NCBI GenBank assembly: GCA_964650035.1
Contig: CAZYSH010000021.1
Span: 1 to 11,812, forward strand
From: an uncultured Candidatus Saccharibacteria bacterium
GTDB taxonomy: Bacteria > Patescibacteriota > Minisyncoccia > Portnoybacterales > UBA2143
DNA length: 11,812 nucleotides
Direction of reading: 5' to 3'
Positions 2,735 through 10,996 of this stretch are shown here, piece after piece (within the stretch, counting starts at the first letter, position 1; each line of letters opens with the position of its first letter). The notes under the pieces are model-generated. The model was not told the origin of the DNA and did not search any database. It saw only the letters and a list, made by a program, of their open reading frames with translations. The position numbers were made by a program, and so were the translations under genes.

Positions 2735-4027
2735 GTGTCTAAAAAGAAAATCGCCACCATTTATACCTTTATTGCCCCAATAATCATTTTTGGGTTGGCC
2801 GCTTCTTTTCCCGGTTGTAAACCAGATCCGTTTAAAGAGGTGGAGTTAGAATTTTGGGGTGTTTTTGACGATTCTGACATTTATCAGCCGTTGATTACCG
2901 CTTTTAATGAAGAGTATAAGCATATTAAAATTAACTATTACAAGAAGAACCATCAGACCTATGAGAAAGATTTATTAGAGGCAATGGCTACCGGACGCGG
3001 GCCGGATATTTTTATGCTCCATCATACTTGGGCGCCCCGCTATGAGGATAAATTAGTGGCCGCTCCTTCTGATTTAATCACTCTTAGAGAAATTCAGGAG
3101 GATTTTGTTGATGTGGTTTATGATGATTTTGTTACTGAAGGATATATTCTTGCTTTGCCTTTAAGCGTTGACACTCTTGCTCTTTATTATAACAAAGATA
3201 TTTTTAATACGGTTGGTATTGCTCAACCGCCGCAGACCTGGGAAGAATTTTTAGCTGATGTAAAAAAAACAACTCTTAAAGACGAGAGAAATAATATTAT
3301 TAGGGCGGCGGCCGCTTTAGGCACGGCCCGCAATGTCAATCGTTCAACTGACATCTTATCTCTTTTAATGCTTCAATCAGGCGCTCAAATGGTTGACAGC
3401 GATAAAACTGAGGCGACTTTTGACCAGGCGGTCAGTTTGGAAGGAGAGAATTTTTATCCCGGCCAGCGAGCCCTGGAGTTTTATACCAATTTTGCCAATC
3501 CTTTGAAAACGGTCTATACCTGGAATAACCGAATGCATTATTCAATTGACGCTTTTTATGAGGGTAAGCTGGTTATGATGTTTAATTATTCTTATCATTT
3601 ACCGACTATTAAGGCCAGGTCGCCTTATTTGAATTTCGGGATTGCCTCAATGCCTCAAGTCAAAACAGCAACTAAAGATGTTAATTACGCTAATTATTGG
3701 GGTTTGGCTGTGTCTCATAATTCAGAAGCGGCTAAAGAGGCCTGGCAATTTATTGTTTGGCTGACTGACAAGGAAAACGCCGAAGCATATTTAGAGGCGG
3801 CCGAGAAACCAATCGCCCGCCGGGATTTAGTCAATTGGCAAAAAAACGACCCGGATTTAGGCGTTTTTGCTCAACAGGCCTTAACCGCCCATTCTTGGTA
3901 CCAAGTGGATAACTTAACTATTGAGCAATACTTGGCTGATATGATAGAATCAGTAGTATTAGGCGAAGCAACTATTGAAGAGGCAATTAAAAAAGCGGTT
4001 AATCAAGTAACTTTGTTAATGAAATAG
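2735..4027 (+). CDS. Extracellular solute-binding protein, family 1 (sugar/MalE-like ABC transporter substrate-binding protein), with an N-terminal signal/anchor. No cognate permease or ATPase lies adjacent (orphan SBP)
   Basis: GTG start at 2735. N-terminal hydrophobic segment IATIYTFIAPIIIFGLAASFPGC (cysteine after the signal, but a non-canonical lipobox). SBP_bac_1-like motifs ELEFWGV...DIFMLHHTWAPRY and LALPLSVDTLALYYNKDIFNTVGIAQPPQTWEEFLADVKK. Confidence 0.85.
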   Translation: MSKKKIATIYTFIAPIIIFGLAASFPGCKPDPFKEVELEFWGVFDDSDIYQPLITAFNEEYKHIKINYYKKNHQTYEKDLLEAMATGRGPDIFMLHHTWAPRYEDKLVAAPSDLITLREIQEDFVDVVYDDFVTEGYILALPLSVDTLALYYNKDIFNTVGIAQPPQTWEEFLADVKKTTLKDERNNIIRAAAALGTARNVNRSTDILSLLMLQSGAQMVDSDKTEATFDQAVSLEGENFYPGQRALEFYTNFANPLKTVYTWNNRMHYSIDAFYEGKLVMMFNYSYHLPTIKARSPYLNFGIASMPQVKTATKDVNYANYWGLAVSHNSEAAKEAWQFIVWLTDKENAEAYLEAAEKPIARRDLVNWQKNDPDLGVFAQQALTAHSWYQVDNLTIEQYLADMIESVVLGEATIEEAIKKAVNQVTLLMK

Positions 4028-4041
4028 AGATTAAGGATTTC

Positions 4042-4107
4042 ATCAAGGACGTTCCTTAAAATGACGTCCTTGTACACAAGGACGTCATTTTAAGGAACGT
4101 CCTTGAT
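4042..4107. repeat. Palindrome P1: perfect 32-bp inverted repeat with a 2-nt spacer (atcaaggacgttccttaaaatgacgtccttgt-ac-acaaggacgtcattttaaggaacgtccttgat). The core looks like a bidirectional intrinsic terminator (AAAA - 12-bp stem - TTTT) nested inside extended perfect outer arms
   Basis: The reverse complement of 4042-4073 equals 4076-4107 exactly. The outer-arm segment aaggacgttcctt is itself near-self-complementary, and the GACGTC palindromes sit inside the central stem, not in that segment. It fills the whole SBP/pilin-1 intergenic gap and ends 5 nt before the pilin-1 ATG at 4113. Confidence 0.85.
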
Positions 4108-4112
4108 ATATC

Positions 4113-4541
4113 ATGAAAATCTTTCAAAAAACTTTATTTTTCACTTTATTTTTAAGCGGATTAGTCAGAGCTAATCTGGCTTTAGCCGCTTTAGTGCCTT
4201 GCGGCGGTCCTACTCAATCACCATGTACGCTTTGCCATCTTTGGCAATTGGGCAGCAATATCATTAATTTTCTTACTTTTAGTTTAGCTATTCCCGCGGC
4301 CGCGCTTTTGTTCGTGGCGGCTGGTGTTATTTTTCTCGTTTCCGGCGGCAATGAATATAAATTGACTAAAGCAAAGACCATTTTTACTAACACAGTTATT
4401 GGTCTGTTAATAGTATTTTGTTCTTGGCTATTAATTGATACTTTAATAAAAACAATAGCAACCACAAGTACAGAAACAGGGGTAATTATATGGTCTTGGA
4501 ATGATTTTCCCATAGATTGTGCGGTTGGCTCCGAAGATTAA
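4113..4541 (+). CDS. VirB2/TrbC-like (CPR-type 'T4SS pilin'-like) small secreted two-helix membrane protein, paralog 1. It has a Cys-rich mature N-terminus and an extended C-terminal tail
   Basis: Signal peptide MKIFQKTLFFTLFLSGLVRANLALA. Cys-rich LVPCGGPTQSPCTLCHLW. Two hydrophobic helices separated by a charged loop (...AALLFVAAGVIFLVSGGNEYKLTKAKTIFTNTVIGLLIVF...). This loop/helix core is shared with the two downstream paralogs. Confidence 0.75.
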   Translation: MKIFQKTLFFTLFLSGLVRANLALAALVPCGGPTQSPCTLCHLWQLGSNIINFLTFSLAIPAAALLFVAAGVIFLVSGGNEYKLTKAKTIFTNTVIGLLIVFCSWLLIDTLIKTIATTSTETGVIIWSWNDFPIDCAVGSED

Positions 4542-4545
4542 AATA

Positions 4546-4899
4546 ATGTTTAAAAATAATTCTAAAAAAATTTCTATATTGTTTGTTTTGTGTTTTTTAT
4601 TATTTGGTTTATTTACAATAGAAGTTGAAGCAGATATTGTTTCAGATTCAATAGAAAATCCACTTGAGGCAGATAATTTTACTGAATTGATTGCAAATAT
4701 TATTGGATGGATTTCCAATATTGGTAAAGCTGTAGCAGTAATTATGATTATCTATGCCGGATTATTGTTTATGATCTCTGGAGGCAATGAAGAAAAGATT
4801 ACTAAGGCTAAGAAAACCTTAATTTGGTCTTTAATTGGTTTAGGCGTCTTGATAATAGGCGATGGATTTGTTAATATAGTAAAAAACCTTTTGGGGTGA
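4546..4899 (+). CDS. VirB2/TrbC-like small secreted two-helix protein, paralog 2
   Basis: Signal peptide MFKNNSKKISILFVLCFLLFGLFTIEVEA, then GKAVAVIMIIYAGLLFMISGGNEEKITKAKKTLIWSLIGLGVLI. The start was chosen at the ATG at 4546, 4 nt after the paralog-1 stop, because the signal peptide begins there. An upstream ATG at 4519 that overlaps paralog 1 is an alternative. Confidence 0.7.
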   Translation: MFKNNSKKISILFVLCFLLFGLFTIEVEADIVSDSIENPLEADNFTELIANIIGWISNIGKAVAVIMIIYAGLLFMISGGNEEKITKAKKTLIWSLIGLGVLIIGDGFVNIVKNLLG

Positions 4900-4943
4900 C
4901 TACTTAATAAATAAAACTATTCAATGAAAGGGGGTGAGAATTA

Positions 4944-5300
4944 GTGAGAAGTAAAAAAACAAAATTATTTTCTGTTGTTTTGGGTTCGCTTTTTGTGTTT
5001 TCGTTTTTAGCTGTGTCAGTGGCCTTTGCCGCTGTGCCAACTCAAGTAACCTCGGGTCTTGATGACCCAAGTGAAATAGTAACTCTAATTTCAGATATTG
5101 GTAAGTATTTTCAGGCTATTGTTTTGGCGATAGGTGTTCTTATGATTATTTACTCTGGTTTTTTGTGGATGACAACTGGAGGAGAAGAAGAAAAGTTAGG
5201 CAGCGCCAGAAAGATTTTGATTTATGGATTAGTTGGTATTGCCATAGCTGTTTTTGCTTATGCGGCTCAAACATTCCTGTTGGCTTTATTGCCAAAATAG
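4944..5300 (+). CDS. VirB2/TrbC-like small secreted two-helix protein, paralog 3
   Basis: GTG start preceded by a strong SD (aaagggggtgagaattaGTG). Signal peptide MRSKKTKLFSVVLGSLFVFSFLAVSVAFA. Core IGKYFQAIVLAIGVLMIIYSGFLWMTTGGEEEKLGSARKILIYGLVGIAIAVF is homologous to paralog 2. Confidence 0.78.
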   Translation: MRSKKTKLFSVVLGSLFVFSFLAVSVAFAAVPTQVTSGLDDPSEIVTLISDIGKYFQAIVLAIGVLMIIYSGFLWMTTGGEEEKLGSARKILIYGLVGIAIAVFAYAAQTFLLALLPK

Positions 5301-7613: not shown

Positions 7614-7634
7614 CAATAGAATGTCCGGTAACTC

Positions 7635-7693
7635 GAGGTTGAACCTAAAAACTACGAACCTCGCAGAGGTTCGTAGTTTTTAGGTTCAACCTC
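7635..7693. repeat. Palindrome P2: perfect 28-bp inverted repeat with a 3-nt loop (gaggttgaacctaaaaactacgaacctc-gca-gaggttcgtagtttttaggttcaacctc), 22 nt downstream of tRNA-Leu. The core is a bidirectional terminator (AAAAA - 11-bp stem - TTTTT)
   Basis: The reverse complement of 7635-7662 equals 7666-7693 exactly. The outer segment (c)gaggttgaacct shares 12/13 nt with the gyrA-proximal hairpin ccgaggttcaacctcgg at 2066-2082. Confidence 0.85.
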
Positions 7694-7772
7694 TATGCAC
7701 TCAATTCTATTCTGTATCCTGTGGAAAAAGGTCTTGACAAGGTTTTCTTAATTGGTTAGGATTAACGCTAAT

Positions 7773-7880
7773 ATGGAATTTTTTCAAATCAAAACCTTAA
7801 ATAGCTTTTATGGTTTTTACTTTTTTAACTGGTTTGTTCAGATCGGTTTTGGTTTGGAGAAAATAAGGATTAGAGTATAA
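7773..7880 (+). CDS. Hypothetical 35-aa aromatic-rich micro-protein (MEFFQIKTLNSFYGFYFFNWFVQIGFGLEKIRIRV) sitting between a TTGACA-containing promoter region and an intrinsic terminator
   Basis: An ORF with no SD. TTGACA at 7734-7739 with TAGGAT 17 nt downstream; TAATAT abuts the ATG. A terminator follows at 7906-7934. This unit is not in the provided ORF track (below its length cutoff). Coding status is unproven. Confidence 0.25.
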   Translation: MEFFQIKTLNSFYGFYFFNWFVQIGFGLEKIRIRV

Positions 7881-7905
7881 ACATAAAGTATATTTTCAGC
7901 AAATT

Positions 7906-7934
7906 AAAACCGGCCTGAATAAGACCGGTTTTTT
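7906..7934 (+). terminator. Rho-independent terminator (aaaaccggcc-tgaataa-gaccggtttttt)
   Basis: GC-rich stem ACCGG/CCGGT extended to about 9 bp with one mismatch, followed by a 6-T run. It closes the short transcription unit that starts near 7734. Confidence 0.5.
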
Positions 7935-7987
7935 AGTTCAACAGTTCTTTATAAACCAAAAACTTCAAATTAAAGAAAGGGGGTATC

Positions 7988-8194
7988 ATGGATTTAGATG
8001 TCAATGTGCAAGAATTATTAAAGGTAAATACAGAGAAATGCGAATGCGGAGGGAGGATTGTTCCTGCCAAAACGTCTGAGGATAGGTTACTTGGCAAGAT
8101 GAAAGAGTGTGATACTTGCGGGAAATCTTCAATAAATGGGGAAGAGGTTGATCTTTTTTCGTCTAAAAGAATGTCAGGAGTTCTATTGTTTTAA
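7988..8194 (+). CDS. Small zinc-ribbon-like protein (68 aa; CxC...CxxC)
   Basis: Strong SD (aaagggggtatcATG). Cysteine pairs KCECGG ... ECDTCGK, a typical Zn-ribbon arrangement. No recognisable larger family. Confidence 0.6.
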   Translation: MDLDVNVQELLKVNTEKCECGGRIVPAKTSEDRLLGKMKECDTCGKSSINGEEVDLFSSKRMSGVLLF

Positions 8195-8222
8195 ATTTAA
8201 ATAAGCAAAAAGGAGAAAGATT

Positions 8223-8408
8223 ATGGGAATAGAAGCTTACAGCGATGAGCAATTAAAAGGAATGCTTGAATCGTGTATCAAGGGAAAGAATTCTACTATG
8301 GAAAAAGAGATCAGGGATATTCTAAATTCAAGGGGCGTTTCTTACGAAGAATTATTAAATAAACCTTTTCCACCCATGGTATTGGGCTGGTCGTCGCCTT
8401 CAGATTGA
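8223..8408 (+). CDS. Hypothetical small protein (61 aa), probably co-transcribed with the zinc-ribbon gene
   Basis: Strong SD (aaaggagaaagattATG). Begins 28 nt after the upstream stop. Predicted helical and acidic; no recognised motif. Confidence 0.55.
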   Translation: MGIEAYSDEQLKGMLESCIKGKNSTMEKEIRDILNSRGVSYEELLNKPFPPMVLGWSSPSD

Positions 8409-8420
8409 AGTTTAATCAAA

Positions 8421-8458
8421 AGGGCCGTATCTGGAATGATACGGCCCTATCTTTTCTT
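8421..8458. terminator. Bidirectional rho-independent terminator between the convergent small-ORF pair (+) and vanW (-)
   Basis: 10-11 bp stem agggccgtatc / gatacggccct with loop tggaat. A T-rich tract (atcttttctt) lies downstream on the + strand and ttttg downstream on the - strand. Confidence 0.65.
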
Positions 8459-10154
8459 ATTCCTCTTTTTCAGTTTCGATTGGATACAAATCAGGGGATT
8501 TGTAGTTGGAATAAAAAGTTTGTTTTTCCAGCTCTTCGCCACTTAGTTTATAAACTTCCTGGGTTAAGACGGCTTTCATAGAGCCGTCTTCATTGCTTTC
8601 TAAAATATAAGGGCCTTTGATTTTTACTTGACGGTTGTCATCTGTGCCGTAGAAATTGACAATAACCTGGCTACCCTGGACAGAGGCCTGAATTAAAAGG
8701 TGATTGGGCGTATTATTAACAAAGCGCAGGTCGGGTTTAGGATCGTAAACTGTGGCGTCAAAGCCCTGGGGATTGTAATAAACAACCGGGAAGGCGTGAT
8801 GCTGACGTTCAGTAATTTTTAAACCGGTATTGATTGCTGCCCGGAAGAAAGTAGTTGAAACCTGACAAACGCCGCCGCCGTATTCCGGGGTGGTTTTATC
8901 TTTTTTAATGACTAATTCTGCTTTGTATCCTTGCTCCGGGCCGGTTTCGCCCAGGAAGGCGTTAAAAGAGAATTCTTCATTTGGGTTTAGGATGTAGCCG
9001 TTTAATTTATTAACCGTTGTTTTGATATTGTGTTTTCGGTTAGCTGGCGAACCGGCAAAGCTGGAAATCCCCTGCCCAATTAGTTTTTTAATGCCTAACT
9101 GGTTAGTTTCCCATAATTTAATTTTAGGCAGGGCTTTATCGGCAATAATGGCGGTGGTTTTAATCGGCGGGTCAGCTAAAATATTTTTTACTAAATTATC
9201 AAAAGTTTGTTCTTTTTTAACTTCAAAACCGGGCTGGTCGGGCGCAAAAATAATCGCTTTATTTCTTTCAGTTTTTAGTTGAGCATTAGTTACTGGCTGG
9301 TCAACTTTACTGGCTACTCTATCTAAATATTTTTTGACTTTTTCAATGTCTAAATTAAAACCTAAAATCAGATTATCATAATCTTCTTCTTTAATTGGCT
9401 CAAAAATTATCCAATCAATTAAAATTGTTTTGTCAATTTCATATTTTTCTCCCTCAAAGGTTAAATAATAGGGCTGATTGGCTAAAACTTTCTGCGCTTT
9501 TTGTTTAGCTGAATCAACTTCATTGTTTTCCACTTCTGGCCGGCCGAGAAATAACTCTAAATTGATTGGTTCTGAAGTAAAAGTATTAATCTGTTGCTTT
9601 AGATTATTTATTAATTGTTCTCGGTTAACAGCAACGCCTTGGGTTGAGTGTTGTAGCGAATAATCATTTATTTCTGAATTAAAAATTAAAGTAGCGTTTT
9701 GAGTCGGCCGTTCAATATTTTCAAAAAGTTGGCCGGTCTGCTCTTGGAATTTTTCTTGATTTATTTGGTAAGCAGCGCTAAAAGAGCGAAAGCCGAATAA
9801 AGCGATTAATTGTTCTTTAATGTTGACTAATGGATTTGAGTGATGGCCGATTTGCTCGGCCTGATTAATAGTTGTTTGGTAGTCAGGCTGGAAGCCGAGC
9901 TCGGTAATGTCAACTAACCAAATTTTATCTTGATAAACGAGCTTTACTTTTTGTTGAATAAATTGCTCCCATTTTTCAGCTAATAGTTTTTCCGCGGAAG
10001 AAATATTTTTTCCGCCCAAATGCAAATCATCTACTTTAACGCCCCAGGCAATTTTTTGGCTATTAACTATTTGCAGGGTTAGAATGAGATAAATTGAGCA
10101 GATAAAAATAATTAGAACGAAGATTTTTAGTTGTTTTTTAAGAAATTTTTTCAT
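8457..10154 (-). CDS. VanW-domain protein (vancomycin-resistance protein W family) with an N-terminal membrane anchor
   Basis: N-terminal TM (IFVLIIFICSIYLILTL). VanW signature region PEYGGGVCQVSTTFFRAAINTGLKITERQHHAFPVVYY (conserved GGGVCQVSTT motif). 565 aa. Confidence 0.88.
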   Translation of the reverse strand: MKKFLKKQLKIFVLIIFICSIYLILTLQIVNSQKIAWGVKVDDLHLGGKNISSAEKLLAEKWEQFIQQKVKLVYQDKIWLVDITELGFQPDYQTTINQAEQIGHHSNPLVNIKEQLIALFGFRSFSAAYQINQEKFQEQTGQLFENIERPTQNATLIFNSEINDYSLQHSTQGVAVNREQLINNLKQQINTFTSEPINLELFLGRPEVENNEVDSAKQKAQKVLANQPYYLTFEGEKYEIDKTILIDWIIFEPIKEEDYDNLILGFNLDIEKVKKYLDRVASKVDQPVTNAQLKTERNKAIIFAPDQPGFEVKKEQTFDNLVKNILADPPIKTTAIIADKALPKIKLWETNQLGIKKLIGQGISSFAGSPANRKHNIKTTVNKLNGYILNPNEEFSFNAFLGETGPEQGYKAELVIKKDKTTPEYGGGVCQVSTTFFRAAINTGLKITERQHHAFPVVYYNPQGFDATVYDPKPDLRFVNNTPNHLLIQASVQGSQVIVNFYGTDDNRQVKIKGPYILESNEDGSMKAVLTQEVYKLSGEELEKQTFYSNYKSPDLYPIETEKEE

Positions 10155-10203
10155 TAATTTAAGGAGAAAAACCTGAGATAGTTGGGGACAGAGTTAGAAG
10201 TTG

Positions 10204-10277
10204 GAGATTCAAGGTGTGGCCTCAAAATTACTACCCTTTGCAAAGGGTAGTAATTTTGAGGCCACACCTTGAATCTC
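10204..10277. repeat. Palindrome P3: 74-bp perfect palindrome (37-bp arms, no spacer) in the vanW upstream region, with a bidirectional-terminator-like core (AAAA - 13-bp stem ttactaccctttg/caaagggtagtaa - TTTT)
   Basis: The reverse complement of 10204-10240 (gagattcaaggtgtggcctcaaaattactaccctttg) equals 10241-10277 exactly. It is flanked by imperfectly complementary agttgg / ccaact-type short repeats, which could extend the pairing. Confidence 0.85.
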
Positions 10278-10329
10278 ACCCAACTCCCAACTCCAACTCC
10301 CTCCACTCCTATAATTATCATAACAAAAA

Positions 10330-10358
10330 ACAGGGGATGAGTGTATCCCCTGTTTTTT
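10330..10358 (-). terminator. Rho-independent terminator of the hsp20 gene, usable on both strands (aaaaaacaggggat-gagtgt-atcccctgtttttt)
   Basis: 9-bp stem acaggggat/atcccctgt with a 6-nt loop. An A6 tract lies upstream and a T6 tract downstream. It sits 15 nt beyond the hsp20 stop on the minus strand. Confidence 0.65.
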
Positions 10359-10372
10359 GTTCCTAGAAAATT

Positions 10373-10996
10373 CTATTCACTTTTAATCATTATCTTCTTA
10401 GTTTTGATTTTTTCCACTTTAGGTAATCTGATAGTTAGAATTCCATTTTTCATACCGGCATCGGCATTGTCAACTTCAACGTCAATAGGTAGAATTATCG
10501 ACCGCGAGAATGGCCCCCAGTAGCATTCTTGGTAATAATAATCTTCTTCTTTGACTTTCTCGTCTTTTTCTCTCGTTCCCTTAATGGTTATCATATCATT
10601 AGTCATACTAATATCAATATCTTCCGGTTTAACACCGGCAATAGTTGATTTAATAATAACTTCGTTGGGCGTCTGGTAGACGTCAATAGTTAGCTGGCCT
10701 TCTGATTCAGTTAGCCATTCCTCTGATTTTTTGTCTTCTATTACAGGTTCTTTTTTAGTTTTAGCGGTTTTTTTGGGCATAGTTATTTTTTTGGCTCTGT
10801 CAGACGGATGTTCTACTGAAATATCTTTTTCAATCACTTTGGATTTTACTTTCTTGGTATTTTTATTAGCGGTCTTCTTCTTTTTGGTTTCTTCTTCAGA
10901 CCAGCTGGCGCCGGTTAATTTTTCGAAGAATGATGAGGGCATAGATATGTTTTTGTCATTGTGAGCGAAGCGAAACAATCCCGTGCAATATCTCAA
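10373..10996 (-). CDS. Hsp20/alpha-crystallin family small heat-shock protein with a Lys-rich N-terminal extension
   Basis: Alpha-crystallin domain: TIDVYQTPNEVIIKSTIAGVKPEDIDISMTNDMITIKGTRE ... WGPFSRSIILPIDVEVDNADAGMKNGILTIRLPK (GxLTIxLPK C-terminal signature). The ORF track starts at a TTG (10996) that has an AAGGA SD 10 nt upstream. An in-frame ATG at 10942 with no SD (MPSSFFEK...) is an alternative start. Confidence 0.88.
   Translation of the reverse strand: MRYCTGLFRFAHNDKNISMPSSFFEKLTGASWSEEETKKKKTANKNTKKVKSKVIEKDISVEHPSDRAKKITMPKKTAKTKKEPVIEDKKSEEWLTESEGQLTIDVYQTPNEVIIKSTIAGVKPEDIDISMTNDMITIKGTREKDEKVKEEDYYYQECYWGPFSRSIILPIDVEVDNADAGMKNGILTIRLPKVEKIKTKKIMIKSE

Follow-up and report, generated by a model that had tools for sequence, protein, structure and literature searches.

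What is a 74-bp perfect palindrome doing between two genes of a very small Patescibacteria genome, just upstream of vanW? The question is posed by an 11,812-nt stretch of DNA from an uncultured bacterium of the Portnoybacterales (contig CAZYSH010000021.1), referred to throughout, at its full length, as the window. On its minus strand lie hsp20 (10373-10996; Pfam HSP20) and, downstream of it, the cell-wall gene vanW (8457-10154; Pfam VanW and PG_binding_4), and the palindrome, P3 (10204-10277), falls in the interval separating them. The best reading of the comparisons described below is that P3 belongs to a repeat family with copies scattered over this Portnoybacteria-like (Patescibacteria) genome and those of its relatives. 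It is probably a non-autonomous repeat akin to the REPINs, which are inverted doublets of repetitive extragenic palindromic (REP) sequences, and it would be transcribed as a -63 kcal/mol leader hairpin of vanW. It is not a purpose-built terminator or insulator.

P3 consists of two 37-nt arms (10204-10240 and 10241-10277) that are 100% complementary with 0 nt between them, whereas the longest arm across 100 shuffles of the window was 13 nt. The RNA fold of the core has a predicted energy of -62.9 kcal/mol (z = -18). Same-strain contigs from other samples and assemblers (JGI 3300009405; ENA SCRA20-1 and SUTE22-1; Logan SRR9166041) match the window exactly up to P3 and stop inside it, and contigs entering from either side run 18 nt beyond the centre without meeting a spacer. 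Since independent assemblies from both sides read the same zero-spacer junction, P3 is not the artefact of a single assembly, and the description of a spacer-less perfect palindrome in an earlier note on this DNA is confirmed by the 37/37 pairs, the shuffles and the independent assemblies alike. The flanking agttgg/ccaact repeats listed there are also present: a CCCAACT tandem of 3.4 copies adjoins the core, and AGTTGG occurs twice in the left flank. The proposal that these flanks extend the structure to more than 100 bp found no statistical support, as their best local match (11/13) is equalled in 17% of shuffles, and the ~5 kcal/mol that they contribute beyond shuffled flanks is reached by ~10% of shuffles on either strand. 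Cruciform extrusion by P3 is physically possible. In Rfam, P3 matched only microRNA-precursor models, at 29-49 bits against thresholds of 79-200; we rejected these sub-threshold matches as hairpin artefacts, a generic response to a long hairpin.

The surroundings of P3 were compared across relatives. A VanW scan of species-representative genomes yielded 80 Patescibacteria loci, mostly from Portnoybacteria-like metagenome-assembled genomes (MAGs). The gene order PrsW-hsp20-vanW is conserved among relatives, and 17 with this order were used for the promoter comparison. Their intergenic layout is uniform: the hsp20 stop, a hairpin terminator ending in a T run and an extended -10 element (TGnTAnnnT) follow one another in this order. 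The vanW start codon comes 3-12 nt past this -10 in 15/17 relatives and 59 nt past it in L024. P3 is absent from the site in 17/17, and one relative, L030, has an 80-bp perfect palindrome between hsp20 and vanW. Because the window retains the -10 (TGTTATGAT) but places it 162 nt from the vanW ATG rather than 3-12 nt, P3 and its flanks constitute a lineage-specific insertion in the vanW leader, the empty-site junction being TGTTATGATAATTA joined to ATGAAAAAA. Once the core is taken out, the sequence flanking P3 is similar to the 59-nt hairpin insert found in L024 at this site (18 of 2,000 shuffles), which suggests that the P3 core may lie inside an older repeat of like kind.

The position of the -10 also bears on how vanW is transcribed. 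The earlier note had seen no convincing vanW promoter in the 49 nt between P3 and the ATG, and this holds: there is no promoter-like site there, only TTAAAT/TAAATT, 1-2 nt from the ATG. A promoter is nonetheless present in the interval, with TGTTATGAT at 10325-10317. A promoter upstream of P3 explains why none is visible downstream of it. Thus, transcription of vanW most likely runs through P3 and yields a highly structured leader, in line with one of the two options put forward previously. The predicted leader together with the first 15 nt of the vanW coding sequence (10310-10140) folds at -95 kcal/mol, and there is no Shine-Dalgarno sequence near the vanW start. In 15 of the 17 relatives, the vanW mRNA would be leaderless or nearly so, because the -10 lies only 3-12 nt before the start codon. 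Extended -10 or -10-like elements 3-12 nt before start codons that lack a Shine-Dalgarno sequence were observed in the vanW upstream regions of L008-L030 and at L219:3519-3545, suggesting that leaderless mRNAs may be common across the clade.

A 55-codon open reading frame (ORF) on the minus strand (10154-10321) stays open across the whole insert, P3 included, and its stop overlaps the vanW start as TAATG. Chance probably accounts for this frame, though coupling would be possible if it were translated. As a translational-coupling device it was rejected: its start lies inside the -10, a frame open over 165 nt in 1/3 frames is not rare, there are many stops before the ATG, and the strain assemblies are identical, so that codon conservation is not assessable.

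P3 is not alone. Within ~22 kb of this genome there are at least five perfect palindromes, P1-P5, all of them intergenic, with spacers of 0 nt in P3, 2 nt in P1 and 3 nt in P2, P4 and P5. In nine relatives, the SBP stop and pilin ATG that enclose P1 are 0-10 nt apart (TAA/TAG to ATG), compared with 85 nt here, with AATGAAATAG joined to ATGAAAATC as the empty-site junction. P2 lies within ~110 nt (7615-7733) missing from L010 and L021, between tRNA-Leu and the TTGACA promoter of a conserved small ORF; this interval measures 6-21 nt in the two relatives and 119 nt in the window. Where P4 lies here, several relatives have the PrsW ATG directly next to the stop codon of the preceding gene. Because their sites are empty or near-empty in relatives, P1, P2 and P4 are insertions as well. 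P5 is located between the S1 stop and the ftsH start, with a -10-like CATAAT between it and the ATG; unlike P3, it is upstream of the promoter. P4 and P1 have arms that are identical over 31 nt and centres that differ. P2 and P5 match at 25/28 positions per arm, and each of the three differences per arm is mirrored in the other arm. The exact P1 arm had no match in metagenome contigs. A phage link for the repeats was dismissed, as the arms of P1, P2 and P3 had no match in viral contigs.

The palindromes share a common architecture. P1, P2, P3 and P5 form a near-gapless alignment with elements of relatives (L012, L014 and L024) and of unrelated metagenome contigs (L122 and L131). Each REP-like unit, of ~33-37 nt, has a module of the form AAGG-N5-CCTy, an A-rich linker with TAC at its end (read on the opposite strand as GTAG, GTAA or GTCA) and a half-site, CCyTT; the centre of the palindrome is TGCA-like. 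In many members the module is itself a 13-bp palindrome, AAGGAC-N-GTCCTT or GAGGTT-G-AACCTC. This short palindrome within the unit is present in P1 (AAGGACGTTCCTT) and P2/P5 (GAGGTTGAACCTC), while the P3 module, AAGGTGTGGCCTC, pairs AGG/CCT only. GTAG stands 5 nt from the module in P2 and 7-8 nt from it in P3; P1 carries GTCA instead, and GTAA or GTAT occurs in further members. The degenerate pattern used on metagenomes also returned chance matches and ordinary terminators, and a locus was retained only if it had a full second module, a long palindrome or a transposase next to it.

That P3 belongs to this family is seen in its arms. The P3 arm agrees with the P5 arm at 19/27 positions (1 of 200,000 shuffles) and, in a register fixed at the centre, with L131 at 23/33 and L122 at 21/33 (0 of 200,000 shuffles). 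A profile built from arms outside the window only has its best window matches in the P1 arms (E 5e-6), followed by the P3 arms at full length (E 0.06). Across nine elements, 25/37 pairs have substitutions in both partners, and G-U pairs are almost absent (0 of 500 shuffles). Such two-sided changes, together with the mirrored differences of P2 and P5, argue that symmetry is actively held at the DNA level and is not just something that RNA pairing tolerates.

The modules also lead to a candidate enzyme. Searching the collected loci with tblastn revealed proteins of 226-233 aa that carry the motifs YHIYNRG, LMPNHxH (HUH) and YxHxNP, the latter two of which are invariant among them. These proteins pass the Pfam model Y1_Tnp (PF01797; 25-37 bits against a cut-off of 23), and their sole NCBIfam match is the REP-associated tyrosine transposase (RAYT) model REP_Tyr_transpos (NF047646; E 8e-17 to 5e-7). 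No IS200/IS605 transposase model in NCBIfam reached E <= 0.01, and a PDB sequence search gave no single-sequence match. We checked both flanks at 13 loci with a complete transposase gene, and in 13/13 family-type hairpin repeats occur on both sides of the gene, ~20-70 nt from start and stop. At the metagenome loci these are of AAGGAC-N-GTCCTT types, with related variants in L194 and on the 5' side of L185. Repeats of the form GGAGGTT-S-AACCTCC surround the gene of L030, a Portnoybacteria MAG, and close variants surround the genes of two other Patescibacteria transposases, these identified through protein homology, not by DNA pattern. In L030, the transposase gene is directly downstream of vanW, and the same hairpin repeats, identical to the P2 module GAGGTTGAACCTC, occur right after tRNA-Leu, the position of P2. 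The modules of P1 (AAGGAC-N-GTCCTT) and of P2/P5 thus flank RAYT-like Y1 genes at both ends, whereas P3's own module was not seen beside any transposase gene. The transposase family is very large, with at least 7,886 matches at E <= 1e-10, most of them on 1-3 kb contigs; where the sources name these proteins, they are mostly transposases of Patescibacteria or Portnoybacteria, with one labelled Nanoarchaeota.

Two further features of these loci were noted. A copy of the flanking hairpin also occurs within the C-terminal part of the transposase ORF (L216:10468-10496; L030:3880-3891). In L194, a seven-fold tandem array of GTGAGTCCTTGAT lies directly 3' of the transposase gene (3730-4410, minus strand), recalling a duplication found after P4 and the CCCAACT array by P3.

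Coordinates of the palindromes and associated features (window numbering unless a locus is given)
Feature	Position	Strand	Description
P3 core	10204-10277	.	Perfect 37+37 nt palindrome, zero spacer; two inverted REP-like units
P3 unit plan			AAGG-TGTGG-CCTC module / CAAAATTAC linker / TACCCTTTG half-site; from family alignments and arm identity tests
CCCAACT x3.4 tandem	10279-10301	.	Adjoins P3 core; GGAGTTGG-type repeats on the vanW strand
Lineage-specific insert, predicted vanW 5' leader	10155-10316	-	162 nt: P3 with flanks of 39 nt and 49 nt
vanW start codon	10152-10154	-	N-terminus MKK..., aligns with relatives
vanW extended -10, TGTTATGAT	10317-10325	-	TGnTAnnnT at the equivalent place in 17 relatives
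hsp20 intrinsic terminator, bidirectional form	10322-10361	.	17-bp stem, arms 10322-10338 and 10345-10361, A6/T6 flanks beside stem; outside the repeat; position kept in relatives
P1	4042-4107	.	Perfect 32+2+32; inside 85-nt insertion (4028-4112) between SBP stop TAG and pilin ATG
P2	7635-7693	.	Perfect 28+3+28; 20 nt past tRNA-Leu
P4	L002:1-76 (~11836-11911, past window end)		Upstream of PrsW; P1 arms, centre TGC
P5	L219:3545-3603		P2-type perfect palindrome; ~8 kb upstream of P1, on 24-kb contig of same genome

A number of observations concern the neighbours of the sibling palindromes. Downstream of the SBP gene next to P1, the window holds three consecutive paralogous pilin genes of the type IV secretion system (T4SS)/TrbC type (4113-5300). 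The interval from tRNA-Leu to the vanW 3' end (7615-8456) varies from ~10 nt to ~6 kb across relatives; in the window it contains P2, a promoter, a small ORF, two more ORFs and a terminator at 8421-8448, and in L030 it is occupied by the Y1 transposase gene. The small ORF (35 codons, MEFFQIKTLNSFYGFYFFNWFVQIGFGLEKIRIRV; 7773-7880, plus strand) follows a TTGACA-17-TAGGAT promoter (7734-7762), has counterparts after tRNA-Leu in L010 and L021, is below the cut-off of the ORF list and probably encodes a small membrane protein. The two additional ORFs are at 7988-8194 (CxC...CxxC, zinc-ribbon-like) and 8223-8408. After P4, a tandem duplication (GTCCTTGATCTAC x2) immediately precedes the true PrsW ATG; the PrsW as called (219 aa) is N-terminally truncated, and its ORF starts at L002:77. 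In the close relatives L014 and L015, tRNA-Leu and a divergent gene have back-to-back -35 boxes (GTCAA...TTGAC); the palindrome lying between these boxes is not the same in the two, and the flanks are almost identical: a P1-type element with mismatches in L014 (12940-13020) and a perfect 22+22 GGGAC-N-GTCCC doublet in L015 (11824-11867). On the contig with P5, gyrA is called at 1349 aa with an intein (PF14890) in the topoisomerase domain (L219:5915-9964); the window begins inside this gene, and its ORF at 10-2064 represents the C-terminal part only.

Which known system does the P3 family resemble? The REPs and REPINs that accompany RAYTs in P. fluorescens SBW25 and E. coli are extragenic, and two inverted REPs pair into a long hairpin in single-stranded DNA or mRNA (Bertels & Rainey 2011, PMC3116915). 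REPINs show compensatory changes on both sides of the hairpin, REPs flank the Y1 transposase gene, with further copies dispersed elsewhere and short tandem arrays alongside, and in SBW25 ~71 nt separate the invariant 16-mers (PMC3116915). The P3 family shares the extragenic location, the inverted units, the mirrored changes and the tandem arrays beside repeats, and in relatives it flanks Y1 genes; repetition within the genome holds for the family (P1/P4 and P2/P5). We assign it an affinity to the REP/REPIN-RAYT systems because a repeat that flanks a Y1 transposase and inverted doublets with compensatory changes are the published hallmarks. There are nonetheless differences. The P3 family has spacers of 0-3 nt, compared with tens of nt, its arms are perfect over 28-37 nt, and several diverged variants (53-63% identity) coexist in a very small Patescibacteria genome. 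In addition, the transposases are ~230 aa and fall below the NCBI RAYT cut-off, and the P3 module itself is non-palindromic. In E. coli, a GTAG tetranucleotide 5' of the hairpin defines REPs.

Other kinds of element come less close. At the ends of IS608, a TTAC/NTAC tetranucleotide stands beside the hairpin. With the IS200/IS605 insertion sequences and their miniature derivatives, the palindrome-associated transposable elements (PATEs), the family has in common a Y1 HUH enzyme (PF01797), hairpins at both gene ends and no visible target duplication, as well as TTAC/NTAC beside the hairpin and one transposase in several genomic contexts. P3, however, is gene-less and has exact mirror ends, whereas the left and right ends of IS200/IS605 differ, and the NCBIfam match here is the RAYT model. 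The Correia elements of Neisseria and the ERIC/IRU elements of enterobacteria are small non-coding palindromic miniature inverted-repeat transposable elements that are co-transcribed and form hairpins in leaders or between cistrons, with RNase cutting and changed mRNA levels. They have terminal inverted repeats around a non-palindromic interior, create TA target duplications (Correia) and are unlinked to Y1 transposases. P3 is likewise a small non-coding palindromic insertion by a gene, but it has no non-palindromic interior and its family is linked to Y1 genes. Integron attC sites, dif/Xer sites, C-boxes, CIRCE/HAIR operators and DNA uptake sequences were rejected for a misfit in motif or spacing and for lack of a conserved position, and TIGR arrays as unrelated, since the repeats here are not arrays.

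How P3 came about and what it does to vanW can be outlined as follows. A RAYT-like transposase encoded elsewhere in the genome would mobilize the doublet via single-stranded hairpin DNA. The doublet would be made or repaired from one unit, by inverted duplication or hairpin-templated copying, and this, not selection for RNA pairing, would keep the arms complementary. Through the insertion, vanW, leaderless or nearly so in relatives, would gain a leader of ~155 nt that contains a perfect 37-bp helix and lacks a Shine-Dalgarno sequence. Such a leader could lower or reshape vanW expression via a double-strand-specific RNase, such as RNase III, or by hindering initiation. We consider that expression of vanW is probably altered in one of these ways by P3, and that the effect is likely incidental, a side effect of the insertion.

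Several other explanations of P3 have been weighed. It is unlikely, in our judgement, that P3 is an immobile palindrome that formed locally, when template switching or fold-back replication acted on a small hairpin already in place, with no transposase involved. Such an origin would fit the perfect, centre-contiguous core within an imperfect periphery and the resemblance of the flanks to the small L024 insert at the same site, and quasi-palindrome correction is an established mutational process. It leaves unexplained, however, the fixed-register similarity of P3 to elements at other loci and in other genomes, the identical P1 and P4 arms at different loci and the link between module and transposase; the continued perfection of the arms could even so be due to template switching. 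A hairpin selected as a cis-regulatory RNA in the vanW 5' untranslated region, controlling stability, processing or translation, is suggested by the location of P3 inside the predicted leader, its extreme stability and the lack of a nearby Shine-Dalgarno sequence. We regard this as decidedly improbable: no relative of the 17 has P3 at the site, like elements elsewhere follow a tRNA, separate genes of an operon or precede a promoter, and strict Watson-Crick pairing with almost no G-U favours DNA-level copying over RNA selection.

Still less credence is given to P3 as a binding platform or cruciform site for a host protein (a nucleoid protein, regulator or recombinase), built from six AAGG/CCTT half-sites at regular intervals. 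Across the family, the modules (AAGG-N5-CCTT) and the centre (CCTT-N4-AAGG) do recur with fixed spacing, but their positions vary between genomes without a regulon-like pattern, the variable stem positions differ among copies, and the Y1 transposase is the only protein found adjoining the modules. The second option of the earlier note, that P3 serves as a tandem terminator or insulator behind hsp20, is very hard to sustain. The strong hsp20 terminator reported there is real (17-bp stem, A/T runs), and like this and other bidirectional intrinsic terminators P3 is a perfect inverted repeat between two same-strand genes, a long hairpin 45 nt downstream of the hsp20 terminator. It differs from them in having no flanking A/T runs and no loop, in a stem 2-3 times longer and in its place downstream of a promoter. 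No T run follows the P3 stem on either strand, the terminator scan omits it, it lies past the conserved vanW -10, relatives do without it, and the terminators of this genome are ordinary hairpin-plus-T structures. An assembly or library artefact in the form of a fold-back chimera, to which the short-read contigs ending inside P3 and one scaffold with an N gap at its centre might point, has practically no chance, as contigs from different samples and assemblers read into the same junction from either direction, the unique flanks continue on both sides, and the four sibling palindromes are crossed by several JGI contigs.

The REPIN-like reading remains the probable one, though a number of points weigh against it. 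All the evidence is computational. No target-site duplication or shared target motif is evident; there is only an A/T-rich AATTA near both ends of the 162-nt insert, and P1 has no such duplication. Evidence of movement, in the form of empty-site reads, excision products or polymorphism among assemblies, was not found. Short hairpin inserts are present at both the P3 and P1 sites in L024, a more distant relative, which implies either site preference or precise loss in closer relatives. The exact P3 sequence variant was found once in 24 kb of this genome, and, in contrast to the modules of P1 and P2, its AAGG-TGTGG-CCTC module lacks self-complementarity. On the side of the enzyme, NF047646 scores of 30-61 bits are under the curated cut-off of 80, and solved TnpA structures (ISDra2 TnpA and E. 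coli TnpArep) were matched weakly, by profile. The 24 kb retrieved from this genome contain no Y1 transposase gene; look-ups with PrsW, hsp20, VanW and the methyltransferase added ~10 kb of it, and the contigs break at repeats. Finally, an identical 233-aa transposase, P0003 (L208-L215), has at least four different sequences immediately beyond its 3' hairpin, depending on the sample, a pattern closer to that of an insertion sequence than to that of a fixed single-copy RAYT.

A bolder version of the REPIN-like reading, to which we attach a small chance, is that these are self-symmetrising REPINs. An undescribed, Patescibacteria-wide branch of RAYT-like enzymes would mobilize the doublets, and the second arm would be regenerated from the first in every copying event by snap-back or hairpin-templated synthesis. 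Copying of this kind would produce zero-spacer perfect palindromes that diverge between copies and never within a copy. Given that genes in these bacteria lack leaders and are closely packed, the host might, in turn, use the insertions to convert leaderless genes into hairpin-leadered, RNase-controlled ones.

REP/REPIN-RAYT systems have been described mainly in Proteobacteria. In the literature we found no paper tying RAYTs, REPs or such palindromes to Patescibacteria, and none mentioning the 13-mer modules. As far as the comparisons reach, the P3 family adds a new variety to a known kind of selfish DNA. If this is true, it would offer a natural system for studying how the two arms of a REPIN stay identical, given that differences between copies are mirrored in both arms, and would explain why short-read assemblies break at these palindromes and why the transposases are found on 1-3 kb contigs. 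It would also mean that, in genomes where intergenic space is all but absent, selfish repeats land in the gap that separates a promoter from the start codon or a stop codon from a start codon, with likely costs for the expression of genes such as vanW.
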